From Podospora anserina (Eukaryota): a DNA stretch of 64,000 nt. Both the position numbers and the translations under genes were made by a program. This document shows positions 31,524 to 63,717 of the stretch, in pieces. Numbering within the stretch: position 1 is the first letter of the stretch; the number at the start of each line of letters is the position of its first letter. Location: contig CM030335.1 in NCBI GenBank assembly GCA_017654855.1, positions 3,844,001 through 3,908,000 of the forward strand. Reading direction: 5' to 3'. The notes beneath the pieces were generated by a model. That model had not been told where the DNA came from and made no database searches. It worked only from the letters and a program-made list of their open reading frames with translations.

Positions 31524-32659
31524 TGTTAATATGTAGGTACTACTAAGTGCCTTACTTACTGCCCTACAGATTGATATTACAGTGGGCAGTACTGCTATAA
31601 GCAGTAATAGAACTTCCCGGCTTAGATCCCTTTAGAATATTCTTTACAAGGGACCCTTAAAGGCTTACAGGGCTACTGTAGCCTGAGGCTTAGTTAATAG
31701 ATACTAGAACCTTCCAAAGTGGCTATAGGCTTACGTAGTAAGTTGCTACAATAGTGTGATTTACAGGGCACTTCTGCTACCGAAAGTTCTATAGATTTCC
31801 GTAAGTCTACACTAGACCCACCTAAGCCCACCAAATACCCCAAAGTAGTATAGTAAAATAGTAAGAAAAACACACAAAACAACCACAACACCACAAATAT
31901 ACCCTTAACAGGTCTCAGAATAAATATATTTACGTAACAGTAATTCGCTCGTAGGCCGCACTTTACGTAGGATAAAGAAAAGACACTATAGGCTCGCAGG
32001 CCATATAATAAGCACCGGATTGGCCTAATTAGAGGGCTAGAATTGCCTACACGCGTGTAAGGCACAAAATACGAAAAAAATAAAATAAAAGTCGATAATC
32101 TATTTAAAATAGAATGTCCGAAGCAAACCGCTTATATATATAACCCCTAAACCCCTAAGTCCTTTAAGAGCCCTACTTCCTTATTTATACTCTTAGGCCT
32201 GTAGCCGCACCCTAAACTAATAGGGGCTTCTAAGGCCTACAGGACCCACAGTAAGCTTACGAAGGCCTATATATAGACCTCTCCTCTCTCCTATAAAATA
32301 ATTCTCTTTCTTTCTTTAAGGGCAAAAAGCTTAAAGCTAAGGCCAAAGGCCAAAGCCAAGGGTAATAAAGGCAATTCTTATTCCTTATACCTCACTATAT
32401 TACAGTGCTTTACCTTCCTTCGGCACTGCCGTCGTATCCTCCCGCTTCCGCTTACACACTACTGTATTTTACAGCAACCCTATATAGGTTCTATATTATA
32501 GGCCTATCAGGGCTTACCAGCTAACAACTATATTACAGTGCTTTACCTTTCTTCGGCACTGCCGTCGTATCCTCCCGCTTCCGCTTACGCACTACTGTAT
32601 CTTACAGCAACCCTGTATAGGTTCTATATTATAGGCCTATCAGGGCTTACTAGCTAACA
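31524..32659 (-). mobile_element. Family-C LTR carrying a family-B insertion and a 133-bp terminal duplication
   Basis: Reverse complement of 38163-38794, with TGTTA...TAACA termini. Confidence 0.9.
31853..32220 (+). mobile_element. Family-B element (~360 bp) with TA target duplication
   Basis: Near-identical to 35733-36087 apart from RIP-type changes. The empty site GTAGTATAGGGGC is visible (reverse complement) in the other family-C LTR at ~38461-38473. Confidence 0.9.
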
Positions 32660-33528
32660 CATACTCTAAAGAAATAAAAATAATATATACGAAAAATACT
32701 TAACGTATTATATAGAACCGGACTTTTAATTAATAAGGAAAAGAGCGAGTTTTACGTATAAAAAACAATATATTTAGGAGATTTAATATTATTAAAAGAG
32801 GTTCGTATAAAACTTAAGAAAATTACGGTAGTTAAAAACTAACTTACGCCGTAGTTATAAATATACGTTAGGGAATTTTTAGGGTTTATAAATACGATAT
32901 AAAAAAAGTTATAAGTAGCGTAAGTAGAATAAAGAGTAAGTATTTTAAAAGAATAATGTAAGATTTTAGTTTTAAGGTCGAAACGGATTAACGTCGGCGA
33001 GTATTTAGATTTATTTACGCGGTTAAATATCGTAGCGGTAAAGAAAAAATAAAAAGAGGAAGACTTACGGTAAATAAGGTTAGTTATTAATAAAGGTTTT
33101 AAATAGAGTCGTCGGGACGTTAACCTAAGAGGGGAGGTATTATATTACAAATATAATATAAATACCTATAAAGAATAATTAATAGGAAAAAGGAGGTACG
33201 GTAGTTAATTAAAAGAAAAGAGGATAGATTAGTAAAAAGTAAATTATCCGGGATATAAAAAAATTATAAACGATTCCCAGAAATTACTTATAATCTTTAA
33301 AAGTCGGTTATAATCCGGGGAGAAATAAAATAATTTAGGCTTAGCATTAAATTTATATATACGGAGGAACTAAATAGCTTATAAATAGTTCCGTAATATA
33401 TAATTTACAATTCTATTTATAGTATTTTATATTTATATTAAAATATCTTATTATATACTATTTAGCTACACCGAACTAATTATTAAAAGTTACCTTTAAC
33501 CTATATTCCTTTTAGAGGTTTTGTATAG
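32660..33528 (+). mobile_element. Internally deleted Ty3/Gypsy 3' part with PPT and family-A LTR variant 3 (33143-33528)
   Basis: 32660-32890 parallels RT sequence at ~36830-37060. Purine tract AAGAGGGGAGG at ~33127; conserved LTR half at 33350-33528, cut ~12 nt before its end by the next LTR. Confidence 0.8.
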
Positions 33529-36500
33529 TGTTACGGTTCTGGAAGATAGTGGGGCCACGACGGACCAATCAGGACTGGACCGCGCAATCGAGCGGGGCTT
33601 ACGGTCTAGGTAGGCAAACGGACTAATTAGATAGGGACTAGTGACCGCGGCGGAGCTCACGGTCCACGGTCCAGTATCGGCTAATTAGGAGAGGACCGAG
33701 GACCGTTTATAAGTTAACGGTTTACGGTCCTAAAGTCTATATATATAGAGGAACTAGCTAGTATAGATAGATAGTTCCGTAGTATGTAATTTAGTTTATA
33801 TTTACGGTATTTAATATTTATATTAAAATATTTTATTATATATTATTTAACTATACTGAATTAATTATTAAAACTTACTTTTAACTAGTATTCCTTTTAA
33901 AGGTTCTATATAGAGGTTCGTTATACGTTATATATTTACTTTAATTTTATTACGGATAAGTTAAAGATATTAAAATAACGCTATAGCTAAAAACGTTAGT
34001 ACTTAAGGGAGCTCGACCTAACCCACTATCGACTAACTTCTTACTCATATTTAAGAGCTTAAAAATAAGTTATATTTTTCCTATAATACTTTTACGTAAA
34101 AAAATACTATACTTTACTAGGAGATTAGTACTTTACGTAGGGAGGGAAAGCGTATTAAGCTCGAGGTACTTAATCGCTATAAAGGTATAAAAGGAGAGCT
34201 AAAAGGATTTTTAATTTAATTTAAAGTTTATTTTCGGTATTACTTTTTTTATTTTTTAGACGAGGAAATTAAAGTAATATACGTTACGTTTAGGTTTAAA
34301 GATAAAATACTTATTTAGTTCGAATCGATTTTAGGAAACTACTTTAATAATAAATACGACGAGAGGGAGGATATTATAAAGAAATATTTTAAGTCGTATA
34401 AAGGTTTTAAAAAGAAAATTAAAGAGGTATTTAAAAAGTATAACGAAAGTAAATGTACTTAGGAGCGATTAATTAATTTTAAATAAACTCGATTTACTAC
34501 CGACTACGCTATAGTATTTAGGATAAATATATTCCGTAATATAATTAACGATAAAGGGTTAATATAATTATTTTCTAATGGGCTTAGGGAAGAAGTTAAG
34601 GATAAGCTATATCGAATAGAGCGACCGGAGATTATTAATAAGTATATTATAATAATAATTTGTATTAACGATTAATAATATTAGTACCGTAAAAAACGTA
34701 AAGGTATACATATATAAAGACTTTATTACTTTAACGATAAAAAAAAAGACGGTTATACGAGACTTACGTTTCGGGGACTATATATATAAGGCTTATAGAA
34801 ATTAATATTATTTAATAATAAAAGTTATAAAACTAAAGTAAAAATAATTTTAAATATTTTAATTATAGTAAAGTAAAATACTTTAAAAGGGACTATAAAA
34901 TATTTAAGCGATTCGGATAGAAGAAAGAGATTATAGTAATTACTATATTAAAAAAACCGAGAGTTATAAAGGTCGTAACTATTAAATATTAATAAAGTAA
35001 AGTAAACAACCGCTATTAGATATATATATAAAAGAATATTAAATATATTAAAGACGGGAAATAAGAGGAAGCTAGGCGGATATAATTAAAAAACTTTATA
35101 TTATTAAATAATTTAAAATAAAAAAACGTTTTTAAACAATATAGCTGTTTAAAAAACGATTTACGGCCCTTTACGGAAGCTAATAATCTTTAACGGACTA
35201 TAAATAGTATTTTCGTAAATATTAATATAAAGTAAAGGTATAGAATAACGATCCGGTATTTATTAATAAGGTCGTTACCGTATAAAGAAGAAGTAAAAAA
35301 GATAAATATTTTTAAATTATAATATATTAAAAAGATATTTAGGTAATAGTATTAATAAACGGAAATATAAAAATAAATTTAATTTCGTTATAGTTTATAT
35401 ATTAGGCTAGGATATTATAGAAAAAAAAAAGGAATGGATCGTTATATAAAAATTATTTCCGATATAAAAAGTTTATAGAAAAATATTATTTTTAAATATT
35501 ATAATCGAAAGAAAAATAATTTTAATTATATTTAATATTATAGATATAGGACCTTCGAAGAATATAATTTTAAAGTAACTATAGTATAAAAATTATAATT
35601 TAGATATCGATTAGAGGGATAGTAGCTATTTATAACTAAAAGAGCTTTAAAAGTATTTAATTAACGATAGGAGATTAGGCGTACGTATAGAGTAGAGTAT
35701 GGGACAAATATCCTCCACGGTACTGAAATGGTGAGAAAACACACAAAACAACCACAACACCACAAATATACCCTCAACAGGTCTCAGAATGAACACACCT
35801 GCGTGACAGTGACTCGCTCGCAGGCCGCACTTCACGTAGGACAAAGAAAAGACACTATGGGCTCGCAGGCCACATAATAAGCACCGGATTGGCCTGATCA
35901 GAGGGCCAGAATTGCCTGCACGCGTGCAAGGCACAAAATACGAAGAAAAGAATAAAAGTCGATGTCCTGTCTAAAATAGAATGTCCGAAGCAGACCGCTT
36001 ATATACATGACCCCTGAACCCCTGAGTCCTCTGAGAGCCCCGCTTCCTTACTCATACTCTCAGGCCTGTGGCCGCACCCCAAACCAGTACTACCGCAAGG
36101 AGCCTAAAAAGTAATAATATACTTTATTAATATAAATAGTAAGATCGAAGAAATAAGGTTAATAACGTTAGTAGAGATATCGGAAATTAATAAATATATT
36201 TACTATAATAATATAGAGAAAGGCGAGAAAAAAGTAATATTAATAGAATATTAAGGATACTTAACTTTTATAGTTAAATATTTAAAGGGACTTCTAGAGC
36301 GAGGATTATAGGACTATAAAATTAAATTAAAGGAAGGAACTAAATTATAGCTATTTAAGGTTTATTATATTAATAATAAGTAAAATAAAAAATTATAAAA
36401 GTATTTAAATAAAAATTTAAAAAAAAGATATATTAAAGAGTCTATATCGCTAATAAAATACTCTATATTTTTCGTACTAAAAAAGGACGGAGGTTTATAA

Positions 36501-38162
36501 TTATATATAGATTATTATTAATTAAATAACGAAACGGTAAAACATAATTATTTATTATTATTAATATTTAAGTTACGGAATTAATTAACTAAAGTATAAT
36601 ATTTTATACGCTTAAATATACCTATCGGGTATACCTATATACGGATTAAGGAAAAAAATAAATAAAAAATAGCGTTTCGTATACTTTATAATTATTTTAA
36701 GTATCTCATAATATTATTTAAATTAATTAATACGCCCGTAACATTCTAATCTCTAGTTAATTATATAATTTAAAAGTATTTTAATAAAATAATAATATAC
36801 TATTTTAATAACGTTCTTATTTACTTACGTACTTTAGAGAAATATAAACGATATATATAAGAAATACTCGACGCGCTATACGGAACCGGATTCTTAATTA
36901 ATAAAAAGAAAAGCGAGTTTTATATATAAAAAATAGTATATTTAAAATATTTAATATTATTAAGTAAGGTTCGTATAAAACTTAAAAAAATTATAATAAT
37001 TAAAGACTAGCCTACGCTATAATTATAAATATATATTAGGGAATTTTTAAGCTTTACGAATTTCTATCGGATATTTATTTATAAGTACGTTAAAATCGCG
37101 TAATTATTTAACTATTTAATTAAAAAAAACGTGGAGTTCCGGTAAGAGTAGGAGGAGGAGTAAACCTTTTAAGAGTTAAAAGAAGTTATTTTAAAGGATC
37201 CGGTATTTAAATTACTAAACCCTAATTAACTATTTAAGGTCGAGGCTAATATATTAGACTATGCGATTAGTAAGTAATTAGGATAGCGAGACGATAACGG
37301 GAAACTATATTTAGTAATTTTCTTTTCGAAAAAATTAAAGGGGATACGTTAAAACTACTTAATCTATAATAAAAAGCTACTTATTATTATCGAAGTATTC
37401 GAGGAGTAAAGGCTATACTTTAATAATACTAAATATAAAATATAGGTCTATACGGATTATAAGAATCTATAGTACTTTATTATTACGAAGGTCCTTAACG
37501 TATAGTAAATACGATAATTAAAGTTTTTTTTAGAATTTAATTTTTAAATTAATTATAAAGAAGGTTCGGAGAACGTTAAAGTAAACGTATTTAATAGGCG
37601 TACCGATTACTATAAAAATATACTTAAGGAGTTACTATTACTACTCGAGGAGGCGCTAAATAATACCTTTAAGTATTTACTATAGCCGTAAATAAAGTAC
37701 TATATAGTATATTGCGAGAGGGCTATTTCTAATAAATATTAAAAGAAGTTAGGTAGTAATATTATAAAGTAATATTAATAGGAAGAGCTAGAACTATAAG
37801 GTATTTAAAAAAAATAATTAAAGAAAATTATAGTATAGAAATCGAGCGTACGTAATACTAAATAATAGAACGGTATTAATAATAGAGATTTACGGGTTAA
37901 AACTCGGAGGGTATATAAGTATCGTTAAAACTATAGAAAACATCAAGTAGCACTTTAATTAACCGAAGATTAAGGACGATATTAAGGAAGCTATTTAGTT
38001 ATACTATATATACGAGAAAACAAGGGTTACGAAGTATAAGCCTTATAGATTTTTAGAACTATTATTAATAGTAAAACGATTATAGAGTTTAATTATAATA
38101 AACTTTATTATTAAATTATTAAAGTTTAAAAATACGGTAACCGGCGTTAAATATAATAGTAT
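33529..38162 (+). mobile_element. Ty3/Gypsy retrotransposon 5' part: LTR (33529-33925), gag, protease, RT, RNase H, integrase N-terminus; heavily RIP-mutated
   Basis: Degenerate RT (FFVLKKDGGL.LYIDY, YFNN for YLDD at ~36800), RNase H (FKVEAN..DYA, FFSKKL, VYTDYKNL) and integrase start, in Gypsy domain order. Confidence 0.92.
35733..36087 (+). mobile_element. Family-B element, 355 bp, least mutated copy
   Basis: TA-CTGAAATGG...CCCCAAACCAG-TA inserted in pol; visibly more GC-rich than its host. Confidence 0.9.
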
Positions 38163-38794
38163 TGTTAGCTGGTAAGCCCTGATAGGCCTATAATATAGAA
38201 CCTATACAGGGTTGCTGTAAAATACAGCAGTGCGCAAGCGGAAGCGGGAGGATACGACGGCAGTGCCGAAGGAAGGTAAAGCACTGTAATACAGTGAGGT
38301 ATAAGGAATAAGAATTGCTTTTATTACCCTTGGCCTTGGCCTTTAGCCTTAGCCTTAAGCTTTTGCCCTTAAGGAAAGAAAGAAAACTATTCTACAGGAG
38401 AGAGGAGAGGTCTATATATAAGCCTTCGTAGGCCTACTGTGGGTCCTGTAGGCCCTAGAAGCCCCTATACTACTTTGGGGTATTTGGTGGGCTTAAGTGG
38501 GTCTAGTGTAGACTCACGGAAATCCATAGAACCTTCGGTAGCAAAAGTGCCCTGTAAATTACACTATTGTAGCAACTTACTACGTAAGCCTGTAGCTACT
38601 TTAGAAGGTTCTAGTATCCATTAACTAAGCCTCAGGCCACAGTAGCCCTGTAAGCCTTCAAGGGTCCCTTGTAAAGAATATTCTAAAGGGATCCAAGCCG
38701 GGAAGTTCCATTACTGCTTATAGCAGTACTGCCCACTGTAATATCAATCTATAGGGCAGTAAGTAGGGCACTTAGTAGTACCCACACATTAACA
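38163..38794 (+). mobile_element. Family-C LTR, 632 bp
   Basis: TGTTAG...TTAACA termini; inverted copy at 31524-32659. Confidence 0.9.
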
Positions 38795-40442
38795 AATACT
38801 TTTAAAGCTCTTTTAGTTATAGGTAGTTACTATCTTTTTAATCGATATTTAGGTTATAATTTTTATATTATGGTTACTTTAGGATTATATCCTTCGAAGG
38901 TCCTATATTTATAATATCGAATATAATTAAAATTATTTTTCCTTCGACTATAATATTTAAAAGTAATATTTCTTTATAAACCTTTTACGTTGGAAATAGT
39001 CCTTATATAATAATCTATTCTTTCTATTTCTTCTATAGTATTTTAATTTAATATACAACCTATAGTAAAATTAAGTTTGTTTCCGTATTTCCGTTTATTA
39101 ATATTACTACTTAAATATCCTTTTAATATACTATAACCTAGAGGCGTTTATTTTTTTTACCTCCTCCCTATGCGGCAGCGATCTCGCTAACAAGCACCGG
39201 ATCGTTATCCTACACCTTTACCTTACGCCGATACTTCCGAAAATACCGTTCGTAGTCCGTTAGAGGTTACCGGCCCCCGCGAAGGGCCGCGAGTCGTTTC
39301 TTAAACGGTTATATCGTTTAAGAGCGTCCTCTTGCTCCGGATTATTTAGCAATACGAAGTCCTTTAACTATACCCGCCTAACTTCCTCCTATCTTCCGTT
39401 TTTCTTAGTATTTTGTCGAGCATACTTTTGATAGTACTTCCGTTGCTTAGTTGATGCCCTAGGCTCGGCCATCTGGTGGTATCGCCTAACTTTCTGTCGC
39501 AAATGCAGCGCGTAATCTGGGCTTGGGCACCACCATAGTACCACCCTTCCTCCCGAGATCTCGCTATCCAACGTGTACCTCTCGTCTGTGTACCCGAGGC
39601 AGCACCCTGCCTCTCGTGGCGTAAACTGGATTACCTGGAATCCATTCCCCAGTTGAGCTGCTTTCCCTGCCTTCCACAGCAGGTAGGCGTCCAATTCTTC
39701 ATTAGCTTTTTCCCATCTTGCCATTGTCTTCCTGACTGGCTGTGGTTTGCCTTCCTTGCACACCTTGCGTACCGGTCGGGTGCCTCGAGCTTAGCGCGCT
39801 CTCCTTCCCTGCGTAAGGTACCAATCTCCTGGTGGAGCATAGCGTTCTCCTGCGTGAGGGTATCGTGGGAAAGGCGTGACTTATCCTCAAGCTCTTGGAT
39901 ACGAGCGAGAAGCTGGTCGATGGTGGGTTGGGTAGAGATCCCCTGAGTACTGACGTTTCAGGCCATGGCGTTAACTTGACACCTTCAACTTATCCGTGAC
40001 AGAGTTGAAGTGAGTATGCAACGTGTGACGAACCCCTGTACAGAACCTCTGAAAGGGATACGGGTTGAAGGTAACTTCTGACAATTGGTTCGGTGCAGCT
40101 AAACAGTGCACAACAAGATGTCTCAATGTAAACACAAGATACCGTGAATACAATTGTGAATTGCATACTGCGGAACTGTCTATCTACACCAGCCAGTTCC
40201 TCCGTATATATAAACCTCAATCCTCCAGGTACCTCCGTACCTGGCTCACCTCGATCACCAAGCGCTCCTGGTGATCCATCCTGGCTCACCTCGCTCACCC
40301 AGCGCTCCTGGCGAGCCGGCTCACCTCTGCCAAGAGGTGAGCGCCCCACTGTCCTGCAGCCCCGCTGTTATCTGTTACTTGATTGGTCACCACAGCCTGC
40401 TGCAGTCCCCACTCTGCCTTGCTATATGGTTGGTCTGTGACA
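38795..40442 (-). mobile_element. Ty3/Gypsy 5' part: family-A LTR variant 4 (40442-40024), internally deleted gag and protease region
   Basis: LTR reads TGTCACA...CGTCACA on the minus strand. The leader and gag start match 33926-34185, then jump to the equivalent of ~34990; 39400-38795 matches ~35090-35657. Confidence 0.92.
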
Positions 40443-47501: not shown

Positions 47502-47829
47502 TTTTTTCGAGACAGTTTTCTTAGTTCACTCCTTGGATTGGTGCTGCATAGCCGGGCGTTTCAACGGGATCATATTGGCAGGGTTTGGGAAAGGAAAACG
47601 GAAAGCATTGGGGCAATGACACAGGGCATTTGGCACACAACTATGATACCACAGATATTGACGAACTCAGTAAAGAAGGTAGTTAAATTGATTTCATTCA
47701 ACATTTGCCGTCGGGCGTTACGCCCAAGCATCATTTGGATATTTATTAGGCCCCTCACACTCCACCTCGACCGCTTTACTGAAATCTCTAAGAAACATCC
47801 AAGTGGCTTCTCTTTTCCAGCCTTGTTCA

Positions 47830-48700
47830 ACAAATTGGCAGGCGTTTCTGTCGGAAAGAAGTCGACAATGTCACCAAGACTCTCATCGTGGCTGGCACGG
47901 ACAAGGGCTCGATCGTTGCAATCCAACTCTTGCAGCTTTTTGACTGTTGCTTGCAACATGTCAACGTTGTGATGCCAGCGTGAACCATGGCTGGCGCACG
48001 ACGTGTAGAAGCTCGCTCTTTCTCCGTTTGGAAGAAGACGGCTGAGCCGAGGCGATTCCGTGCAAAATGTTTCATCCGAAGTTGAACCTGATGCACAAAA
48101 TGGGAGGATGATATTACGTCGGGTAAAGGGAGGTAAGGGGATGGTCTTAGTTCTCCAGGGTGATGGATCGTATCTCCAGCCAACAAAACAAACGAGGTTG
48201 GAGTGACTCGCGCAAACGCGCAGATATATCCCACCGTATGGCCGGGGGCATCCAAGAGAAATGATTTGTCACCAAGGAAGTCGAAGGCGAGGAAGTTTCC
48301 AAGCTTGCAGCTTTCTTTTCCAAACTCCGGCTCCGTGATCCGGCGCCCAGCATAGTCGCTATCACGGACGACACTGGCTGGATCGGCCGGGTAGCCCGGT
48401 AACAATGTCGTTGTGAATCCAGGGCCAAAAATGAGTGGAACAGTTGTCAGAAAGGTGGATGGGTCACTGTTATGGTCAAATGATGATGGGACAGAATAAT
48501 CCCGTAAATGGAGCTCGTGTCGACACCATTTGCCACCAAGATGTCAGGCACATCCATTTCAACATGCAGCTACCACACTAACGCAAGCAGGCGACTGACC
48601 AAATCAGGGGCAAGATTACGCCAATCTTTTCGTATTCCTAGATCAAATAGGCATGTCTTTTTGAGAGTTGGGTGGAGAAGGGAAAGTAAGGTAGATTCAT
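47830..48700 (-). pseudogene. Metallo-beta-lactamase-fold (AHL-lactonase-like) pseudogene
   Basis: LFDLGIRKDW, in-frame TAG at ~48570, frameshift inside the SHxHxDH metal motif (~48480), DAPGHTVG and LAGDTIHH; no intact N-terminus. Confidence 0.85.
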
Positions 48701-48846
48701 AGTAATTTTTCACAATGTACCTATACAACGTGAACCTCTGGACTCTAAGTACATAATTTTCCGTCATTGTATCATGAAGTGGTCTTCATTATCTCATAGT
48801 TACAGCAACAAAAAAAAATTCAAAAAGATTGGATGTCAAAAAGTAA

Positions 48847-48929
48847 CGATCCGCCCAGGGGTCGAACCTGGAACCTCCTGATTGATACTTGTATCGTAGT
48901 CAGACGCGCTGCCATTACGCCAGCGGACC
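48847..48929 (-). tRNA. tRNA-Arg(ACG) with 11-nt intron
   Basis: GGTCCGC/GCGGATC acceptor stem, TGGCGTAATGG A-box, TCTGA-CTACGA[TACAAGTATCA]A-TCAGG anticodon arm, GGTTCGACCCC T-arm, and a downstream T5 terminator. Confidence 0.95.
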
Positions 48930-49118
48930 AATGAGAATTGATATTTTGTCGACTGTAATTTATGATTACATTGGATGTTAACAACTTTGTGCAGCATACC
49001 TTAGCCAGTGACGAAATTCTTCAATCTCTCGTCATTCATAAACCACCCAAAAGAAAACCAGCCATCGCAAATGCTCCCTTCAAACTTTATTCCAGCCTTC
49101 TTTTCACATACCTATATC

Positions 49119-50375
49119 TCAATAGCATCGACGGGTGCTACCATCCGACGCCATGCCGTATACATCCACCTTTCCGTTATCCCATGCTAAGCCGTTAGGT
49201 TTCGTAGTAACACTGCCGCCCATATTCTCCCACGAAGCTGTCCACTGGCCATTGGTGGCCTTTTTGCGGTACATGGCACCGTCCCGGCCAGTGTAGTACA
49301 CTTCCATCTGATTGCCCCAAGCAACAACATCTGGAGCCGTGCCTGGTCGCACATCACCACCCATGTTCATCCAGTTACCCCAATTCCCGGTGCTGTTGGT
49401 GTAAGTTCTCATCCACACCGCCCCGTCGGTTCCCCCAACGGCCACAGTCATATTGCCGCTCCAAGCAACGGCGCTGGGTTCACTATCCAACGAGCCCCCG
49501 AGGTTTGTCCAGCTTCCCCAAGTATTTTCATTCATCATTTGTGTCGCCCATGCCTGTCCATCTGTCCCTCTCACCACCACTCCCGTGTGGCCTTCACCCC
49601 AGCTTACAGACTTTGGCGCACCGGCGAGGGAGCCGCCCATGTTTTGCCAGCTGCCCCATCCGCTATTCTCATCGTACCTAATCCCCCACAGCTGATTGTC
49701 ACTGGAGCTGGTGTAGACAGACGCATGCCTGCCGCCCCAGGAGCACGAGGAAGGATAGTGCTTGCAGTTGCCCCCCATCGGTTGCCATGATCCCCACCCA
49801 CCGCCACTGTAGGGGCGATGCCAGATCTGATAGTCTGTTCCTTTGCAAAACATGTGCATGTATCCACTTCTCCTGCTGCAACAACTTGGAGCAGAGTCGA
49901 GACTTCCACCCAGATCGTCCCACTCTGGAATCCACGGGTTGCTACCGCCGCGATAGTACTTGTGACGGCATTTTCGGTCGCGATGCGTATAATATACGTC
50001 CTGCCGACCGGGGCCCCAGGATGTAACCGCGGGGTGGTACAAGCCAGAGCCAGACATGTTTTCCCACTGGCCAGATGTTGCTCGCTTGGTTTGTTGCTCG
50101 GGGCTGATCAAGGGTGGGGCAGGAGAGGATACCTGGCGAGGAGAACGGGCTTTGAAAGACGGAGAGGGATTAGTGAAGTACTCGATCGAGTGAACATTGG
50201 ACCGCTTGGAGAGGAAGTTATCGGGGCGGGGCGTATTCCAATAGTCAATATCTCTTGCTTCCGCGCGGCTGCGGATGAGGAAAGGTGAAGGACGGGTGCG
50301 GGGCCCTATAAGATCAGGTGATGGGAGGGAAAAGACGAAAAGGGGAAGGGTGAGCAATATGATGTAATGGATCAT
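49119..50375 (-). CDS. Secreted seven-bladed beta-propeller lectin-like protein (PLL/fucose-lectin type)
   Basis: Signal peptide, KR-containing pro-region and seven ~46-aa repeats W-x-x-[LM]GG...P...W...G.D...W; intronless. Confidence 0.85.
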   Translation of the reverse strand: MIHYIILLTLPLFVFSLPSPDLIGPRTRPSPFLIRSRAEARDIDYWNTPRPDNFLSKRSNVHSIEYFTNPSPSFKARSPRQVSSPAPPLISPEQQTKRATSGQWENMSGSGLYHPAVTSWGPGRQDVYYTHRDRKCRHKYYRGGSNPWIPEWDDLGGSLDSAPSCCSRRSGYMHMFCKGTDYQIWHRPYSGGGWGSWQPMGGNCKHYPSSCSWGGRHASVYTSSSDNQLWGIRYDENSGWGSWQNMGGSLAGAPKSVSWGEGHTGVVVRGTDGQAWATQMMNENTWGSWTNLGGSLDSEPSAVAWSGNMTVAVGGTDGAVWMRTYTNSTGNWGNWMNMGGDVRPGTAPDVVAWGNQMEVYYTGRDGAMYRKKATNGQWTASWENMGGSVTTKPNGLAWDNGKVDVYGMASDGSTRRCY

Positions 50376-51761
50376 GTTTTGCAAGAGGTTGGATTCGATG
50401 GTTTTGGAGTCTGCAGTGATTGAAGTGGGTGTTGGAGATGACAGTAACAAGCAAGCTTCCAGAGACAAAAAGGAGACTTTTATAGACAGCAAACTTGCGT
50501 GCTTCTGCATCCAGACGGACTTGCATTGGGCCTTACGATGGAACAGTCCTCGTCCTGAGTCAGTTCATAGCCATACAGATTGCCGCTGGACGGCTACCAA
50601 TCTTCATATTGCGACACTTCTCACCTTATCTTGTGTGAATACTGGGTCAGCCTGACCCTGGGAGAGTTCCTACTGGCTATTTTCTCACAGCGTGTTATTC
50701 ACTTTCGTTCTGAGTTCCCACTGCGAGACATCCAAGTGGTCACAAAGCCATGGATGCATTTCTCACAATACAAAATACCGACAGAACACCAGGGTTGCAC
50801 TGCAGCACACTGTACGCTCATAATGAAGTGGTGGCCCATTCATGTGGGCACTTGCTTGTTGCCAAGTCCGAATAAAGGGATCGAGTTGACCGGGTATGAA
50901 TCTTGCCGATACCCGTTACCATCAGAGAGAGGGGGCAGGCCGGGAAGGTAAGGTAAGGTAGCACCTAACAAGATGAAAGAGGAAACCACCCCGACTTGAC
51001 ATATCAAAGGAAGATAGCTCCAGAACGAGTCTCAACCCAGTCGAGATGCAACTGTTTGAAGCGTCCGAGGTCTATGGTTGCATACCTATCTACGACCGCA
51101 TGATCAGTTCCAGAGTCTCATGGGGTACATAGAGTTTGCTGTTGTTTAGTTCACGGCTATTTGAATCTTGGTGACTGTCACGCGTTCGAAGATGAAACTC
51201 GGCTTACCTCCCTTATCTATATGGGGTTCATCGATACTATCCGCCACTTTCTCCGCTGCGTATCAACTTTCAACCCAGGTATGGTAACCACTGTAACATA
51301 CCAGACTCAACTCACCGCCTCTCCAGTTCCCGAATATGGTATTATTGCTCGTTTTGGTGTCACACCACCGTTCATGTTATCTTTCCGAGGCATAGGTGAT
51401 GTCCTCTTCCGCGAGGCTCATGGTGGTGTGTATCAGAGTACCAAGGTATCTGTGTGCCGCTACAATGTCAACGATGGACGGGAAACCTTGAGTTGCTTTT
51501 CCCCGAAATTGGCCCAGATTGCTCATGGCTGAGCTGTAGGTTGGTATCAAACTGATTAGAGATTGCTAGGGAAATGGAAATAAAACTCCATGCTACATAC
51601 AGAAAAGCGTAAAATGAAAACGGAAAACCAAAGAAAAACAGAATAACCCCCCCCTTCCCACGTCTAAGACTCTAAGGTATTATGCTCCCACACCTGATGC
51701 AACTGCCCACTTTCGTTTTTGGAATCTCGACTCTACCCTCATCAACTTGAACATATTGGAC

Positions 51762-53474
51762 CTAGGAAAAGCAGCTCTTGGCCCAAAGGATAGCTTTAAC
51801 CTTGAGGGGAATCTTGTTGCTCTTGCCAGAGTTAAGTTCACGGACCTGGATGCCGTGCTTCTCCTTCAAGGGGCCCTCGTTGGAGGATAAAGATTGCCTT
51901 CCTGGAGCGTCAACATCATCAGTTCTGTCGCCAGTGTAGATCTGACGGGGACGCCAAATCTTAATGGGTTTGTCTGTCAATTACAATGTTAGGATCTGAT
52001 TCTGAAAGGTAGACCTAGATTCGGATGTGGAAACATACCCAAGGTCTCTCTCCAGTGTGCGAGACCACCGGGAATTCGCGATAGAGTGATGATGGCCGTG
52101 ATCATGTCGGTCTCGAAGCCCCTGCGACAAGATGGTTTGTTAGCATTTGTCTCACCACATGGAATGCACGAACGATGGCACGTACAGAGCAGAGTACAAG
52201 AAGCATCCCAACAGATCGGCATTCGCCTTGAGCTTCCTGCTCACAAAGTACTCGTCCTCATTGGCCAGCTTGTCGATGGCAAAGGCAACCCTGAGCAGAG
52301 GGTTGGCGTCACACTTCTCCCTGTTCTTCTCAATAAGTTCCTCAATGAGGGAAAGGCGGGGGTCGCGGGTGCGGTAGATGCGGTGACCGTAGCCGAACAG
52401 ACGAGCCTTCTTGGACTTGACCATTTCAATGTAAGCAGGGACAAAACTGGGGTGCTTGATCTTGCCCAGTGCTTCATAAGCAAGATCGATGGCGCCTCCA
52501 TGAAGGGGACCAAATCCGCATACCAGAGCGGAAATGGCGCAAGAGCCTGGATCGGCAAGAGTGGAGCCAGCATGGAGAAGGCCGGCGGTAGAGTTGGTCA
52601 TCTCATGGTCTGCGTAGCAGATCCAGAGCTTCTCAAGGCACGCCTGAATCTCGGGATCGGGACCAACACCAGTCTCCTTGTTTGTCTTGCCCATCATCAA
52701 CAGCAGATTTCCAATGAGGCTGCCATTGGGATCCGGGTTTGTGAAGGTCAGCTTTCGCTTGTGACAGTGAATGAGAGCGAGGGTAGTAGCATAGTAGGCG
52801 ATGGTGCGGATGATGGCCGCATCGGCCTGTTCGAAGTTGTTGTGGAAGCTGGGTTTGTGTGTGTGTCGATTGTTGGCAATCACCTTGTCCCCTGACATGA
52901 AGGCACAGAGACCGGCGAGGCACATCGGGTATGTATCGCTGTTGCGTCTGGAGAGCAAGCACGGTGGTCAGTATGGAGCTCACCCGGTCGACCGAGAGTG
53001 TTGATGCCACTTACGGGAACGCAGCTATGGTGTCAACGACTGTCTTGGTTGGTACCATGGCAGCAGCGAACTTTCGTCGCACATCCAGCTTTTCGGCTTG
53101 TGTAGGAAGCTTTCCCCACATCAAGAGGTAAAGCACATCCTCATAGTCATTGTTTTGGAAGAGCTCTTGGATGGGATGGCCACGATATTGGATTTGGCCC
53201 CGGTTGCCGTCACTGTCTTGCATTAACACGTGGAGCCAAGTAAAAGGTGAACTGGCACTTACATCAGGGTGATCTCGGATTCCATGCACGCGACATTCTC
53301 AAAGCCATTGTCGAGGACGGTGAGCTTCTGCTCAATATCGCTGCCCTTTGGATCTGGGGTGGTGATAGCCATGAGGTCCTTGGCCCGGATGAAGTTATCA
53401 TGGATGGGGATGAGGTAGGCATTCTCGGTGCGAGAATCCACAATGCGCAGTTGGCCGGTCTCTTTGGAAGGCAT
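51762..53474 (-). CDS. Citrate synthase-like protein (no obvious mitochondrial presequence)
   Basis: IDGNRGQIQYRG, YADHEM, GPLHGGA, LFGYGHRIY..RDPR, ANAD and IWRPRQIYTG. Introns 53262-53213, 53014-52948, 52185-52122 and 52038-51974 all keep frame. Confidence 0.93.
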
Positions 53475-54364
53475 ATTGGCGGTTGGTCAACGTTGACTGA
53501 GCGTGAACGAGTATTCAAGTCGATGCGGACTGGAGTGTTGGTTGGATGTCGTGGATCAGTATCACGGTACAAGTGCTGGCATTTAAGCACTTTTGGAAGT
53601 TAGGACGGGGACTGTTGAGGATGTCGAGTCCTTTTCCCAACTTGGATTGCACTGATTCACATTTCCGTCATGTAATTGTCGCTGGGGGTGATGTCGTGTC
53701 TCAACAAGTCGTGGGGTCGGCCATCCGGGAAGTTCGGAAGATCCCTTCCACATATAGCAAGTGTTCGAGGAGCGGCAACAATGGAACCGTTGCAGCCGCA
53801 CAGCGAGCTATCCGTGAGACTTTTGGGATATCGGGGAGTCAAGTGCTGCGCAGGACTTTTTCTTCCATTCCATAGGAGCCGGCGGCAGTACCTTGCGATT
53901 GGGAAATGGTTCGCTGACCCGGACCTGCAGGTGTGTAACACGTACCTGGGGCGTGGTGTCCCCACAAAATCCTCAGATTCCTTTCCATCGCTTCCGTGCG
54001 CGCAGCTCACGGCTGTTTCGGTCAAGTCCGCCTCATAGAAGCTCTACCGGTCTGGAATCCTTTGAGAAAGATATTATCTGATAATGTCAAAATTGTGGCA
54101 TGTTTGATCTTTGTTGATGTCTTGGCGGTCGGACCAGGAGATGTTGAGATCTTCCGGGCTTATGCCGTCCTTGTTTACTGCATTCCGCATTCCGACAACT
54201 CCAAGTTCATAAGTCCCAGGAGTCAGCGCGCACTCTGAATGTTTTGTTTCTCATCACCATCACCACCATCCACTAGAAGCCTCCGCCGCCTGCTCTCAAC
54301 GCTCTCAACTACAAACACTTTTGCACAACATCTTACCTTTCATACAACTTCGAAATCGATCAGA

Positions 54365-55273
54365 ATGGCCGCTGCTGCTGTTGCCCCCACCTCCACCACA
54401 GGCTTTGTCTGCATGTGGAATGGCACCAAGGACGGTGCCGACGCTTTTGTCGACTATGGCAATGGCAACACCAACATCAACGAGCCCCAGAAGGTCAATA
54501 TTGTGGCTCACGACATCCGCCACTTGGAGCCCAAGCCATCTCTCGCCGGAGACGGCTACGAGCTCGCCGACCACGTCAGCAATCTTTCCACCGAGGACAT
54601 GCTTGCTGGAAACACTCCCGAGGGCCGCAAGTTGATTGAGACCGAGTACTATGCCGAGTGCAAGAAGATCATTGCCGACATCACCAAGGCCCCCATCGTG
54701 GAGCCTTACATCTTCCGCATCCGACAAAACGGTGCTCATCCTCGCGATTTTGGCACCAAGAACGTGGCCAACAAGGGCATGACCTCGGCCTCCCTTCCAA
54801 TTGCCCATGTTGACCGTGACCGCCGCACGCTCCGCGACGGCATCATTGAGTACTTTGGCGCAGATGAGGCCGAGAGACTGTTCAAGAAGCACAAGCGGTA
54901 TGCCCAGATCAACGTTTGGCGTGGTGTGGACGAGGTCATCAAGAAGTGGCCCCTCATCTTTATCAACCACGCCCAGGTCCCCAACTGGGATTATGACAGC
55001 CACATGGCCACAGTTACGCCCATCAATGACCCCCGCGTCGCCATCCGCGGCCAAAAGGCGCAGGACAGTGTTCTCAAGTATGCCGCCGAGTACAGCTACT
55101 ACTATGTCAGCGACATGAAGAAGGAGGAGGTGCTTGTCTTCTCGTCAGGCGACAGCGATGCCGCTCGCGTTGTGCCCCACGGCGCTTTCTGGGACGACAA
55201 CACGGCTGATGATGCGCCCACCAGGCGCTCGCTCGAGGTCCGTGCCTGGGTTTTCTTTGACGACGAGGAGTAA
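54365..55273 (+). CDS. AsaB/CmcJ/GA4-desaturase-like oxygenase
   Basis: AHVD, INVWR....WPL, YY.SDM..EEVLVF, VPHGAF and RRSLEVR; intronless with strong codon bias. Confidence 0.85.
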   Translation: MAAAAVAPTSTTGFVCMWNGTKDGADAFVDYGNGNTNINEPQKVNIVAHDIRHLEPKPSLAGDGYELADHVSNLSTEDMLAGNTPEGRKLIETEYYAECKKIIADITKAPIVEPYIFRIRQNGAHPRDFGTKNVANKGMTSASLPIAHVDRDRRTLRDGIIEYFGADEAERLFKKHKRYAQINVWRGVDEVIKKWPLIFINHAQVPNWDYDSHMATVTPINDPRVAIRGQKAQDSVLKYAAEYSYYYVSDMKKEEVLVFSSGDSDAARVVPHGAFWDDNTADDAPTRRSLEVRAWVFFDDEE

Positions 55274-57018
55274 TTGAGATGAACGTGTTGGTGCTTCGAT
55301 GATCTGTTTCAATTTTTCCACTCACTAGACTAGCTTAGATAAATCAAACCGTGCAAGTTGTCATGATGCCTCCATTCACAATGTCGTTTTGTCTTGCAAT
55401 GTCTTGAAAGGAGATCTCGACATGTCTGCTGTCAGCTGTTCAAGTGAAGGTCCCTGCTTGTGTGTCTGTGCCTGAGAGTTGTGATTGGTTGTGATTGAAA
55501 TAGAAATGCGGGAGCTAGCCCTAGCGCATGTTTTTGGCCTCCCAGAGCCCCACTCTCAACGTCCAATGACGTGTTTGAGCCTGGGCCACTTTGATAACAT
55601 CAAAAAAGGACTACCCAAAGAGGAAACAAGCTCAGCGCCAATGGCAGATGTACCGAGATCCCCGCAGGGTCAGCGTTACACCACGGCAAGCCTCACACGG
55701 ACACGGACTGGTTTTCTCGTCACTTTTGTCCTGTCCATAACAACCACTGACTTCAAGGCGGTGTTTTCCCATCAGGTCTGCGTTTTTCACTCCGTTCTGG
55801 TCCAGGCCCCGGTAATGCCGATCATTCCCATTCCGCTCTTCTATTGTTCAAACCGTGTCATCGGGTTTCGCTCTGATGGCATCAAATCTGAGTCAACTAT
55901 GAAATGTAAGACAGGACAGTCAAAGCTGGAATTGAGGCCTGCCATCTCAGACGTGTCTTGATCCAGCCCTTTTCACTGCATGTGCACAGTACCGGGAAAT
56001 GGGGATCTGGGGACATCGTACCTCCAGGAACCGTCCCCTTCTCGTGCTCTGTTGCCGTTTGGGGGGACTAGAAATGGACAGCATGTGAAATTGGGCCACC
56101 AGTTCTTACCAAAGCTCAAAGCCCCGGGGCGGAGGCAAACTCGGCACGGAGAACGGAACATATTTGGCTCCATCACATATCGGCTTCTTCGGTGTTCCTA
56201 TTGCTAGAATTCGGTAGTGACTGGCGAGGTAGGTTAGCTTAAACCACGAGATAGCATCAAAACCTCCAAAGAGAACCGTCCCGGCTTTGGGATCTGACTG
56301 CACGTGGGCTTATCCGCCAAGCCTCCCCTACTTCTGGTCACAGTCCACAGATCCTGGCCATCAGCGATAGAGCTACTACAAAGGTAGGCAACCCCGACTC
56401 TTCCAGTCATGAGCCGCAAAGTCGCATCATACCTCGGTATCTTGACAATGGCAACCGGGGGAACGGAGTCGTCGGAGACCCAGGCAAGAAGACAGACCCT
56501 CAAGAAGTCTTCCCTTCTCAGTACCACCACATGGCATCCATTTCCTTCATGGCTCCGCCGGGGCGCTGGGTCTTTTCAATGGGATATTCATAATCTGGCA
56601 ATCGATTCTCCCTCTGTTGACTCGATGCCAAGACAAGCATAACCATCAGATGTCAAACAGTTTTGGGATTAGTCTCACAGTCCCACCCACACCCCGGATG
56701 TGCGGCAGGGGGGCGCGGCCACTAATAGTGGACCTTCTGGAATGCAACCCAACAATGGGGTGGCCACAAGGAAAGACGGGCTCGACCGAGACACCGGGAG
56801 AAAGGGCACTTTGGCTCCCTATCCTCCGTTCCATGACACCTTCTCCTCGCCTGAAAATGCACGACATAAGTGTAAAAGAACATCGACGACGCGCTGAACA
56901 TTGGCATCCACCACCGCTTTGAACCTGGCCAAGCCTTGAGGGTTTTCTCTTCGTTTTATCGTCTTTATTTTTGTTTTCTTGCCCTGGGCTTGCCCTGGGT
57001 ACCATCAAAACACACCGT

Positions 57019-58711
57019 CATGGCAGTCATGGCAACCGTGGCGACAGGAAGCACATCTGCTCTCGCTGCTGTCGACACCGAGCCCATCTCTGAGCAGCCC
57101 GTCTCGGACGGTGTTGACGACGTCGACGTGCCACCTCCGTATTCCGTATGGTCACCGTGGCAAAAGAAGCTCATCGTCGCCGGCGCCGCCTTTGGTGGTT
57201 TCTTCAACCCAATCACGGCCCAAGTCTACCTACCTGCTCTAACAGTCTTGGAAGACGAGTTCGGCGTCACTGAGGCCGAAATCAACCTGACCGTTACCAC
57301 CTACATGATCTTCCAGGGCTTGACTCCTATCCTATTCAGTGGCTTTACCGACACACTGGGAAGACGACCTGGATACATCTTCTGTTTCATCGTATACATC
57401 TCAGCCAACATTGCCCTGGCTCTCGCAAATGACTATGAGGACTTGCTGGTAATACGGTGTTTCCAGTCAGCCGGATCAGCGACCATCATGGTGATCTGTC
57501 AGGCAGTGGTGGCCGACATCATCACCAGCGCCGAAAGAGGAGCTTATATTGCATTGACGGCCATCCCGTCCATTCTGGGCCCATCCCTCGGTCCCGTCAT
57601 TGGCGGTGCCATGACGCAATACATGGGTTGGAGGAGCATCTTTTGGATGTTGACCATTGCAGCGGGCATCAACTTCTTGCTCATGCTGTTGTTCATACCA
57701 GAAACGTGCCGCAAGGTGGTAGGTGACGGATCCGTCCGCCCTCCCTGGTGGTGTCAGAGCGTGTATCAGTGGTTTTACTACCGTCGGCACCCCAGTGTCC
57801 CTCAAAACCTTAACTCGCTTGAAAAGTCTGCGTACACCACGGATGAGGGCAAACTCAAGTACGCCACTTCTCACTTGTTTTCATCCTTTGCGTTGCTCCG
57901 AGAGAAGGAGCTTGCACTTTTACTCATCATCGGCGGTACCGTTTTCACTGGGGTCTATGCCGTGGGAACGGCCATGCCAGCCCTCCTCCAAAACTTGTAT
58001 GGCTTTACCCCCATGCAAATTGGACTCATGTATTTACCATTGGCTGGTGGCTCAATCCTTGCGGTGGTGTTTGTTGGGCCCGGCATGAACTGGAACCTGA
58101 GACGGCATGCCAGAAAGCTGGGAATGCCGGTGGACAAGAAAACCAAGATGGACCTCAGTCGGTTTCCCATTGAGAAGGTTAGACTGGAGATTGCATTCCC
58201 ATTTTTGCTCTTGGGCGTCGGGATTATAACTTCTTGGGGCTGGATCACCGTCAACAAGGTCGAGATTGAAAAGGTGATCATTGTGGTGCTTTTCCTTGGG
58301 GTTGGTTTGGTTGGAGTCAACAATGTGGTCAACGCGCTGATTGTCGACATTTATCCCGACACAGCCGGCGCGGCGCTGGCAGCCTACAACCTAGCAAAAT
58401 GCATCATGGGCGCAGCATCGTCTGGATTCGTCGCGCCCATGATCCTAGGGATGGGCATGGGTCCGGCGTTTACTCTCTTGGGTTGTCTCTACCTTCTACT
58501 CGTGCCCATCATACTCTTGGTAATGTGGAAGGGGGTTGCCTGGAGGACATCCAGACATGCAAGAGAGCTGAGAAAGAAGGGCAGCATCTTAGTCAGGGAG
58601 CAAGAGCCTCAGGAATCGGTTTCTGATACTGACATGGCAAGCACACCGCAAAAGGAAACAACGAGTACCGAGATTCTGCCGGCAGAAAAGGACGCGAGGT
58701 CGACATCATAG
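57019..58711 (+). CDS. MFS drug:H+ antiporter (DHA1; Qdr/CexA-like exporter)
   Basis: PPYSVWSPWQKKLIV, YLPAL, DTLGRRP, VVADIITSAERG, GPSLGPVIGG, GWRSIFW, PETCR.VVGDGS and FPIEKVRL. Confidence 0.92.
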
Positions 58712-61292: not shown

Positions 61293-62498
61293 GTTGACTC
61301 GTGGCGTGGGTGATTGGTGCTGTGTTTGGCACTGCATTTGCTCTTTAAAAGAGGAAAAGATATCATCTTGCCCATCGAGATTGAAATTTCTCGACAGGAT
61401 TCAACCAGCAAGCGTAGATAGAATGTTGCCATGCGGCGTTGCCGTTATTCTTTTGGTGATCCTTTCACATGTGTGGCACGTGTGCTTTGGTTGACGCTTG
61501 ACCGAAGACAAAGACTTGGTTGGCCGTGCGTCACGAACTCGAGTGCACTCTTTGACCGAAGCAGGTACTACAAGATAACAAACCTTAGATTCATTGTTCG
61601 AAATGCTTGGCCTCGGGTTGAATCGCCTTCAACGAGATCCGGGGTGGCCGAGTAGCCGATAGCACGTTGGTTCTGAGATTCAACTTCTACTACCTTGGGT
61701 TCGGTCATTTTTGTTGGGCATTTTCCTCATTTGATAGTACGCTCGCGATTCAAGTTCAACCAGATGAGTGGTCAAACTAGACGAGATTTGCTTGGTTTAG
61801 ATCTACAGGAGAGGTGGTGTGGGGATTCCTGACTGCTAGCCCTGTCGGATGAAGATGGCTGGTGTCTACCGACGGGATTGGAGCGGCTCGACAAGTGTCA
61901 AACACCATTCATCATTGGACCGGTTAAAGGTGGTGACATCGTCTAAAAGAGATGCTCTGGAGCCAGAAACATGGTTTTCAGACCTAGGAGAACGTGAAAT
62001 GGTCATAATGGGAGTCAACGAAACCCCTCTGGTTATGCACGACGCGCGGCGTCTATGCAATTTTCAATGGTTCCGTACCCAACAGATTGGGTAATGACGG
62101 ACCGACGGTGATCTCATGGCACTTGATATACGACTCTTCAAACGCTTGATTGTCCGTCTAGCCATAACTGTGGATACCTATATTGCTGCAAGGGGTTGCA
62201 ATTATCCCCGACCCGCGTTTGCGAGACAGGCTAGAAAGCAGCCGGCTATTACCACCAGTCTCAACGATCACGAGTCTGTATGTTTTCTGGGGTAAAGGCA
62301 ATTACCAGGATCCACCGAGAATCTGGGGAACTCCGCACATTTGGCATTGATGGTATTCCGGCTAAAAGGGGAGAGCTTACAATCCAGCCGCCACCACCTA
62401 GACGATCGCATCATGGTTGTTTGGGCATCTTTAAAAAGGGACTCTTGTTCTCGTTGTGTGAGCCAAGTTCTTGGTCATACCGCAACCTCATTCTTACC

Positions 62499-63717
62499 AT
62501 GCTTCGCCTCGCATTGTTGGCCGGTATTGGCCTAGCCAAAGGGGCATTGGGTGTCAATCTCATTGCCTCTCACTTCAGCGGCGGCATCTATACCCTTTCT
62601 CTGACCACCACAGGTACCAGCGGTACCATCTCGGTGACATCTCAAACCAACGGATGCGGGACTACTCCCGGATGGATTGAGTTGTACTCCGACACTCGAA
62701 AACTTTATTGCTTTGACGAATCGTGGACGGGTCGCGGCCAACATGCCGAGTTCAACGTTCAGAACGATGGACGGCTTTCCCTAGCCTCGTCTTTGCAGGT
62801 TTCAGGCAATTCTGTGCATGGGATTCTTTACGGCGGTCCCGATGGCAGGAGTTACATTGCCACGGCCGAATAGTACGTTTCCCGCTCAACTCCTCAAAAC
62901 CACAATGACCTTTCCTTGACACACCCGCAGTTCTCCCTCAACCATTACCACCTACAAGCTTCCCCTCCAGGGCAGTCGGGTACAACAGACGGAAAAATTC
63001 ACCCTTGCTCGTCGTGGGCCCCATCAAAGACAGGATGTCCCTCATCCCCACGAGGTGCATCTTGATCCTACCGGAAAGTTCATCCTTGTTCCTGACCTGG
63101 GTGCCGATTTGATCCGCGTGTTCCGCATTGACACCAACTCTGGCCGTCTCACTTCATGTGCTTCCCACGCAACCGGTGCCGGTGACGGACCTCGTCACGT
63201 AAAGTTCTGGAAGTCGGAGAGCGGCAAGGAAAAGGTTTTCTCCCTCAACGAGCTTGGCAATTCCGTTTCTGCCTGGGATGTCAACTACACCAACGACTGC
63301 ATCTCGCTCACCAGGACTCACAGCATCTCCACCTACGCCCCCGGCAAGAAAGGTGGCGCCAACACCAAAGCGGCCGAGATTCGTACTTTTGGAAACTTTT
63401 TGTACGCTTCCAACAGAGCTGATCAGACGTTTGGCAACTCTCAGGATTCCATCGCCATTTACACCATCGACCCCACCACTGGTGCCATTGCCTGGCTTGA
63501 GGCGGCCAACAGTTACTCGTACTATCCCCGTACATTTGCCTTCAACAAGAACGGCACCCTCGTCGCCATTGGTGGTCAAACCTCGAGCAACGTGGCTATT
63601 GTGGCAAGAGACACTGCAACTGGTAAGCTTGGAAACTTGGTGGCCAACGTCCAAGTAGGCCAAAAAGGCCGGGCTGGTGAAGAAGATGGTTTGAGTGCTG
63701 TTGTCTGGGCCGAGTAA
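62499..63717 (+). CDS. Secreted lactonase, seven-bladed propeller (6-phosphogluconolactonase/muconate cycloisomerase family)
   Basis: Signal peptide, intron 62873-62930, RQDVPHPHEVHLDPTGKF, DLGAD, GPRH, YASNR and PRTF. Confidence 0.92.

Follow-up and report, generated by a model that had tools for sequence, protein, structure and literature searches.

A candidate alkyl citrate gene trio with no chain-building enzyme in view in a 64-kb stretch of the Podospora anserina genome

Introduction

Can a fungal alkyl citrate pathway draw on an acyl-CoA that its own gene cluster does not supply? The question is raised by three neighbouring genes, encoding a citrate synthase-like enzyme, an Fe(II)/2-oxoglutarate dioxygenase and a DHA1-type efflux transporter of the major facilitator superfamily (MFS), in a stretch of 64,000 nucleotides of Podospora anserina (assembly GCA_017654855.1, contig CM030335.1, positions 3,844,001 to 3,908,000 of the forward strand), which as a whole is called the window here and is numbered from its first letter. 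With modest confidence, we read this trio as a compact unit of alkyl citrate synthase (ACS), hydroxylase and exporter that draws on an acyl-CoA not encoded at the locus. Alkyl citrates include inhibitors of squalene synthase and phospholipase A2, among them the squalestatins, CJ-13,982 and the cinatrins. All three enzyme families are already known, as is the combination of synthase, oxygenase and transporter; what would be new is a conserved version without a cluster-encoded chain-building enzyme, in Sordariales and Stachybotryaceae. A literature search, outside which most subscription journals fell, found no paper on an ACS, oxygenase and MFS trio lacking a chain-building synthase, or on this locus in Podospora.

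Results

Gene models of the trio

The citrate synthase-like gene, a putative ACS gene, lies on the minus strand at positions 51762..53474. A five-exon splice model built from the sequence (53474-53263, 53212-53015, 52947-52186, 52121-52039 and 51973-51762) contains introns of 50, 67, 64 and 65 nt, all four of the GT..AG type, and its coding sequence of 1467 nt yields 488 amino acids (aa) with a single terminal stop, the TAG at 51764-51762. The predicted protein aligned without gaps over 488 aa with a 'putative citrate synthase' of Cercophora samala (P0041, 488 aa), a named NCBI protein, at 97.1% identity (99% over exon 3). The oxygenase gene is transcribed in the opposite direction, on the plus strand (54365..55273), as a single-exon open reading frame (ORF) of 302 aa with its ATG at 54365 and a stop ending at 55273. 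The transporter start lies 1,746 bp further downstream on the same strand, and this third gene (57020..58711) is again a single exon, running from an ATG at 57020 to a stop ending at 58711 and encoding 563 aa, with 99% identity to a 563-aa protein of Podospora pseudocomata.

The start codons of synthase and oxygenase are separated by 890 bp (53475..54364), a divergent region that contains no ORF with a Pfam match and is presumed, from its geometry only, to be a shared bidirectional promoter. When this region was compared with the 1,746-bp region upstream of the transporter, no word of 10 nt or longer was common to both (shuffled mean 3.4), 8 nine-mers were shared against 12.1 expected, and CGG-N-CCG words were few in both regions with none in common. 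The comparison gives support neither way.

The citrate synthase-like enzyme

Pfam Citrate_synt (PF00285) matched exon 3 at 2.1e-51 and exon 2 at 6.2e-14, and among NCBIfam models exon 3 scored 2e-38 against the bacterial-type cit_synth_I versus 1.4e-3 against the eukaryotic mitochondrial-type TIGR01793. The closest solved structures to the Cercophora samala protein were plant peroxisomal CS3 (9x0i, 1.1e-70) and then bacterial type I enzymes. The catalytic His, His and Asp are found in GPLHGGA (residues 283-289), GYGHRIY (322-328) and KANADLL (377-383), and with domain and catalytic residues all present the protein belongs to the citrate synthase superfamily, of the bacterial or plant-peroxisomal type. 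Read by eye, its N-terminus carries acidic residues early, and no peroxisomal targeting signal of type 1 or type 2 was seen.

The residues around the active site were compared across fungal and non-fungal proteins. The window enzyme reads HGGAI and NADLLGC, versus HGGAN or HGGAT plus NVDFYSG in five true citrate synthases (from an alga, a plant, an amoeba and a bacterium). In all 17 other fungal rows the first motif likewise ends in I or V, with two of them also altered in the HGG part, and the NAD form of the second motif is present in 14 of the 17. The D-L-L-G-C string that follows from the catalytic Asp (residues ~377-390) is found in the synthases of Sordariales, Stachybotrys, Paramyrothecium and Clonostachys, versus D-L-Y in 10 of 11 fungal rows outside the 14-row clade, D-L-F in the remaining one (A. 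luchuensis) and D-F-Y-S-G in true citrate synthases; this contrast could reflect a difference in the substrate pocket. Taken together, the alignment shows a derived active-site neighbourhood, which carries no chain-length assignment. In a quick-search tree, for which as for the oxygenase tree the only support value is the Shimodaira-Hasegawa-like approximate likelihood ratio test (SH-aLRT), the synthase fell within a 46-row fungal clade (SH-aLRT 100), apart from the algal, amoebal and bacterial citrate synthases; neither tree has an experimentally verified ACS, CtrR1 or MfR1 among its rows.

The dioxygenase and the transporter

The oxygenase had no match in our local Pfam copy, which is without a model for the family; it was recognised by NCBIfam NF041278 ('CmcJ/NvfI family oxidoreductase'), scoring 127.1 bits where the model cutoff is 80. 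PF27522 is a precomputed assignment in 39 of 40 oxygenase homologues among the matches listed and in 94-100% of the members of near Atlas clusters, one of which is auto-named 'Hydroxylase/desaturase asaB'. A profile of 24 aligned sequences matched NvfI (7de2) at 1.9e-38 and 7eus at 7.8e-39 in the PDB. Across these 24 sequences H148 and D150 of the metal triad H148-x-D150...H272 are invariant and H272 is at least 90% conserved, as are the candidate 2-oxoglutarate-binding arginines R287 and R293; the facial triad and arginine that PMC8851701 requires are present in the window oxygenase. The 100% match (P0001) is listed from an assembled-read source only and the best named match is 75% identical, so public annotation of the closest species may have missed the gene.

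The transporter matched Pfam MFS_1 at 2.8e-47. Its top NCBIfam match was the Bcr/CflA efflux subfamily (1.5e-36, under the model cutoff), followed by related efflux families that were all under their own cutoffs, and some of its relatives carry the source names 'MFS transporter M6', 'Itaconate transport protein' and 'Quinidine resistance protein 2'. A crude hydropathy scan gave 10 clear hydrophobic segments, plus two weaker N-terminal ones by eye, which is compatible with ~12 spans.

A first-pass annotation, made from the letters of this stretch, had described three intact genes arranged divergently across about 890 bp: a citrate synthase paralogue with HGGA, GHR and NxD, an AsaB/CmcJ-like oxygenase and a DHA1 exporter. 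Each part of that description is borne out: the reading frames are full-length, the start codons are 890 bp apart, the synthase has its Citrate_synt match, 488-aa model and located motifs, the oxygenase scores above the NF041278 cutoff with PF27522 and the asaB auto-name among its homologues and has its catalytic residues, and the transporter combines an MFS_1 fold, efflux-type relatives and about 12 hydrophobic segments.

Search for partner genes in the window

The Pfam scan covered every stop-to-stop ORF in the window that reaches 110 aa, 135 in total, together with another 110 ORFs of 55-109 aa between 43.7 and 64 kb. Ketosynthase, acyltransferase and fungal fatty acid synthase (FAS) families were matched by 0 of the 135 longer and 0 of the 110 shorter ORFs, and no scanned ORF of the window matched the MmgE/PrpD (2-methylcitrate-type) dehydratase, Zn2Cys6 or fungal transcription-factor families. 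Relaxing the threshold to E up to 0.01 for the 115 ORFs between 43.7 and 64 kb (the 110 short ones and five of at least 110 aa) uncovered no hidden or decayed fragment of a FAS, a polyketide synthase (PKS), a dehydratase or a transcription factor.

The earlier statement that the window holds no FAS, PKS or dehydratase partner agrees with the scan of the 135 ORFs. The sequence in view covers 51.7 kb on the left side of the trio but ends 5.3 kb past the transporter on the right, and because of this short right flank the description of the locus as 'backbone-less' holds within the window and does not extend beyond it, where an unlinked or just-outside FAS or PKS may exist. The first-pass annotation had also set the missing dehydratase against its usual place beside extra citrate synthases; the absence stands, as an anomaly it does not, since the gene lists of the nearest known relatives, the squalestatin and cinatrin (ctr) pathways, contain no alkylcitrate dehydratase either (PMC6349020, PMC13178491). 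A trio without this enzyme fits the squalestatin/ctr branch, which uses none in those accounts, and not the maleidride, oryzine and sporothriolide branch.

Occurrence of the trio in other fungi

The three orthologues appear to be co-located in other Sordariomycetes. Adjacency in these fungi rests on equal-sized contigs, two Stachybotrys chartarum locus tags and two mis-fused gene models. The best synthase, oxygenase and transporter matches lie on equal-sized contigs in five of the nine named species of a 14-row oxygenase clade, namely Podospora australis (191,676 bp), Bombardia bombarda, Cladorrhinum sp. PSN259, Stachybotrys elegans and Paramyrothecium foliicola. Oxygenase and transporter matches share a contig size in Cladorrhinum samala (142,306 bp) and PSN332, and the same pair does so in three more assemblies, at 8,779, 26,836 and 34,638 bp. 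Two locus tags of Stachybotrys chartarum IBT 7711, S7711_01365 for the synthase and S7711_01367 for the transporter, are spaced so that a single gene could lie in between, which matches the arrangement in the window; this gene is presumably the oxygenase, the listed S. chartarum oxygenase belonging to a different strain. In Xylaria curta, a mis-fused model runs from a sister-clade synthase into an MFS protein (46% identical to that of the window) and on into FAD_binding_3 and ADC domains. The second mis-fused model (P0047, Paramyrothecium foliicola, 1016 aa) joins the orthologous synthase to a DUF4246 protein (PF14033, 7.5e-158), and a DUF4246 gene therefore adjoins the synthase in P. foliicola, a family that is absent from the window.

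Synthase and oxygenase give congruent trees: the former is placed in a 9-row clade (SH-aLRT 97), the latter belongs to the 14-row clade (SH-aLRT 99), and each of these clades consists of Sordariales, Stachybotrys and Paramyrothecium, with Xylariales relatives next to it.

Relation to known alkyl citrate pathways

In the squalestatin pathway of Phoma MF5453, the citrate synthase-like enzyme MfR3 makes a hexaketide citrate that the non-haem-iron enzymes MfR1 and MfR2 oxidise repeatedly (PMC6349020). The trio resembles this pathway in pairing a synthase with an oxygenase of the kind that acts on its alkyl citrate, a likeness drawn without direct sequence comparison to MfR1-3. Unlike the window, the squalestatin pathway, in the same account, needs two PKSs, a hydrolase, a benzoyl-CoA supply, a copper oxygenase and acyltransferases. 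In Paramyrothecium, the annotator's labels for the three orthologous proteins are 'Oxidoreductase R1', 'MFS transporter M6' and 'Citrate synthase-like protein'; these are squalestatin-cluster names, M6 being known as the squalestatin transporter via the annotator's label only.

The other closest characterised system is the ctr cluster for cinatrins and CJ-13,982, which was first noted in PMC8403587 and is present in 47 Hypoxylaceae according to Heinemann et al. (Chem Sci 2026, PMC13178491), the source of the following particulars. FAS alpha and beta supply the acyl chain, likely myristoyl-CoA in those authors' view, and CtrACS makes CJ-13,982. CtrR1, 45% identical to MfR1 and 38% to MfR2, then hydroxylates C-4 and subsequently C-2, giving the 4-hydroxy and 2,4-dihydroxy forms, the precursor of cinatrins C1 and C3. 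The cluster also has a transporter, a FAD monooxygenase (FMO) whose role is unknown and a transcription factor, and its FAS genes directly adjoin those of the oxygenase and the transcription factor (PMC13178491). Window and ctr thus share an ACS-like enzyme, an MfR1-like dioxygenase and a transporter, and an alkylcitrate dehydratase is missing from both; FAS alpha and beta, the FAD monooxygenase and the transcription factor are found in ctr and not in the window. Gene order also differs, and ctr comes from Hypoxylaceae and the trio from Sordariales and Stachybotryaceae. The window oxygenase is 53-54% identical to its Hypoxylaceae matches (Hypoxylon, Daldinia), which form a neighbouring Xylariales clade.

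A citrate synthase-like ACS is likewise a feature of the maleidride, oryzine, sporothriolide and piliformic acid clusters, and 44% of maleidride clusters include an AsaB-like 2-oxoglutarate dioxygenase (PMC8851701). Unlike the window, the clusters of this branch have an alkylcitrate dehydratase (ACDH) of the 2-methylcitrate dehydratase type plus a PKS or FAS, and some of them additionally contain genes for a decarboxylase, a cyclase (MDC), a PEBP-like protein or a lactonase (PMC8851701, PMC8162735). The ACS of byssochlamic acid accepts CoA thioesters only (PMC8851701).

Proposed pathway and its alternatives

The steps proposed for the trio are all inferred by homology. The synthase, presumably cytosolic, would act as an ACS and join oxaloacetate to the alpha-carbon of an acyl-CoA; as a relative of CtrR1 and MfR1, the dioxygenase would hydroxylate the alkyl citrate, by analogy at C-4 and/or C-2; hydroxylation may then lead to spontaneous gamma-lactone formation, as in the cinatrins; and the DHA1 transporter would export the tricarboxylate. 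The acyl-CoA would most likely come from the cell's own pool, because no dedicated FAS or PKS is encoded in the visible locus, and the product would be a long-chain (C16/C18-derived) hydroxylated alkyl citrate. Fungal FAS releases C16/C18 acyl-CoA, and a long-chain product is therefore expected. Taken with the use of CoA thioesters by an ACS, this release of acyl-CoA makes a cluster without its own synthase chemically feasible. A 2-decylcitrate synthase activity was reportedly described in Penicillium spiculisporum by Mahlen in 1971, as an enzyme activity only, with lauroyl-CoA and oxaloacetate said to be its substrates; it offers an old precedent for a fungal alkylcitrate synthase that uses a fatty acyl-CoA, and the literature found ties no gene or cluster to it.

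Several points weigh against a self-sufficient trio of this kind. In the papers found, each characterised alkyl citrate cluster encodes a FAS or PKS of its own (PMC13178491, PMC8403587, PMC8162735, PMC8851701); a version lacking one is without precedent, and the cluster may just be incomplete in the visible stretch. There is no transcription factor at the locus and no above-chance motif common to both promoter regions. Equal-sized contigs of 1.0-10 Mb, which account for four species besides P. australis and for PSN332, say little on adjacency. Among the matches listed, no partner was found for Podospora fimiseda of the oxygenase clade or Clonostachys solani of the synthase clade, and for one further oxygenase, on a 743,588-bp contig, no transporter was found on a contig of equal size. 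Two links in the argument are also presumed from sequence resemblance: the placement of the synthase in the fungal ACS radiation, that is, its monophyly with the known ACSs of PMC8851701, and the equation of the Hypoxylaceae oxygenase matches with CtrR1 orthologues.

The precedent of the characterised relatives, all of which have their own FAS or PKS (PMC13178491, PMC8403587, PMC6349020, PMC8162735), is also what speaks for the foremost competing account. There the trio would only tailor and export the product of an ordinary alkyl citrate cluster whose dedicated FAS pair or highly reducing PKS (with hydrolase) lies just to the right of the window or elsewhere in the genome, and 'backbone-less' would be an artefact of the limited view. 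We consider this rather unlikely. In its favour, the window stops 5.3 kb past the transporter, and the MARVEL, Fung_rhodopsin and lactonase genes found there mark no obvious cluster border. Against it, the ctr FAS genes stand directly beside the oxygenase and transcription factor genes (PMC13178491), whereas none occurs here in 51.7 kb to the left or 5.3 kb to the right; and of the two mis-fused models, that of Paramyrothecium leads to DUF4246 and that of X. curta to MFS, FMO and ADC sequences, so that neither reaches a FAS. It seems improbable that the three genes are neighbours without a common pathway, acting on unrelated substrates, or the silent remnant of a cluster whose synthase has been lost, acting on none. 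The lack of a cluster-specific regulator and of a common promoter motif would fit such a history, as would the fact that the literature found describes no product from these fungi; the three intact frames with lengths near-identical to their orthologues, and the recurrence of the same three families together in Sordariales and Stachybotryaceae with congruent trees, argue against it.

A short acyl-CoA (acetyl- or propionyl-CoA) as substrate is very unlikely in our estimate. The oxygenase would then hydroxylate citrate or methylcitrate, to hydroxycitrate for example, in a secreted organic-acid overflow pathway. The full set of citrate synthase catalytic residues, the absence of a chain-supplying enzyme at the locus and the naming of some transporter relatives after an itaconate exporter are all compatible with this, and CtrR1 hydroxylates C-2, an oxaloacetate-derived carbon (PMC13178491). 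The synthase, however, has the HGGAI and NADL-GC of fungal secondary-metabolism-like clades and not the HGGAN or HGGAT and NVDFYSG of true citrate synthases, and it nests among those fungal clades in the tree; the nearest characterised oxygenases moreover act on long alkyl citrates (PMC13178491, PMC6349020). A specific form of the same idea, a three-gene route to secreted hydroxycitrate or hydroxymethylcitrate in which a short-chain synthase is followed by a dioxygenase that would hydroxylate the citrate skeleton at its oxaloacetate-derived C-2, is a long shot, slightly less probable again. We know of no assigned biosynthetic genes for hydroxycitrate or hydroxymethylcitrate.

We thus continue to favour the compact alkyl citrate unit fed by an acyl-CoA from outside the locus. 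The first-pass annotation had proposed a linked pathway, and the linkage itself is supported by the apparent co-location, the congruent trees and the pairing of these enzyme types in squalestatin and in ctr; its substrate and product are putative.

If this interpretation is true, such pathways can use primary acyl-CoA directly. The trio would be the first alkyl citrate pathway fed straight from housekeeping C16/C18 acyl-CoA, and could plausibly be the core ancestral to the squalestatin and cinatrin clusters. It would suggest that gene gain built up the larger clusters, a possibility that PMC13178491 also brings up, and it would point to cryptic metabolites in Stachybotrys and in Podospora-type fungi, which are genetically tractable. 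Genome-mining tools easily overlook loci of this kind; even FAS-based alkyl citrate clusters went unrecognised by antiSMASH (PMC8162735). We regard the lead as well-founded and cheap to test rather than surprising.

Neighbouring genes and further observations

To the right of the transporter, Pfam matches identify a MARVEL-domain protein, a Fung_rhodopsin-domain protein and a 7-bladed beta-propeller lactonase. The lactonase gene has two exons (62235-63717, plus strand; PF10282 at 7.2e-09 and 1.2e-65) and starts 3.5 kb downstream of the transporter. Because lactonases have a part in forming the products of another alkyl citrate cluster, that of sporothriolide (PMC8162735), and the cinatrins are lactones, it could, by analogy, be a fourth cluster member. 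A second candidate for this role was considered at the far left of the window, where split ORFs at 3266-4501 (plus strand) match HpcH/HpaI aldolase or citrate lyase beta-like sequences (1.9e-07 and 5.7e-10); it was rejected, as it lies ~47 kb from the trio and beyond an AT-rich block.

The left neighbours of the trio begin with a sugar transporter gene at 45.1-47.6 kb, followed by an ORF pair at 47.5-48.8 kb. The minus-strand ORFs at 47570-48785 contain metallo-beta-lactamase-like strings in translation, such as APGHTVGY and AGDTIHH; the 238-aa ORF at 47827-48543 had no Pfam or NCBIfam match, and the 232-aa ORF at 47570-48268 had no Pfam match in a scan at E up to 1e-5. A tRNA-Arg(ACG) gene (48846-48930, minus strand) separates this pair from a 481-aa ORF (49119-50564, minus strand), which matched no Pfam or NCBIfam model. 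The latter has a hydrophobic stretch near its likely N-terminus and many W-G-S-W...M/L-G-G repeats, and from these features it resembles a propeller or lectin-like secreted protein. Further to the left, positions 28001-40000 form a low-GC block of ~12 kb (0.245-0.415 versus ~0.5-0.6 elsewhere) with almost no ORFs of at least 110 aa, which looks like repeats degraded by repeat-induced point mutation (RIP) between two gene-rich segments.

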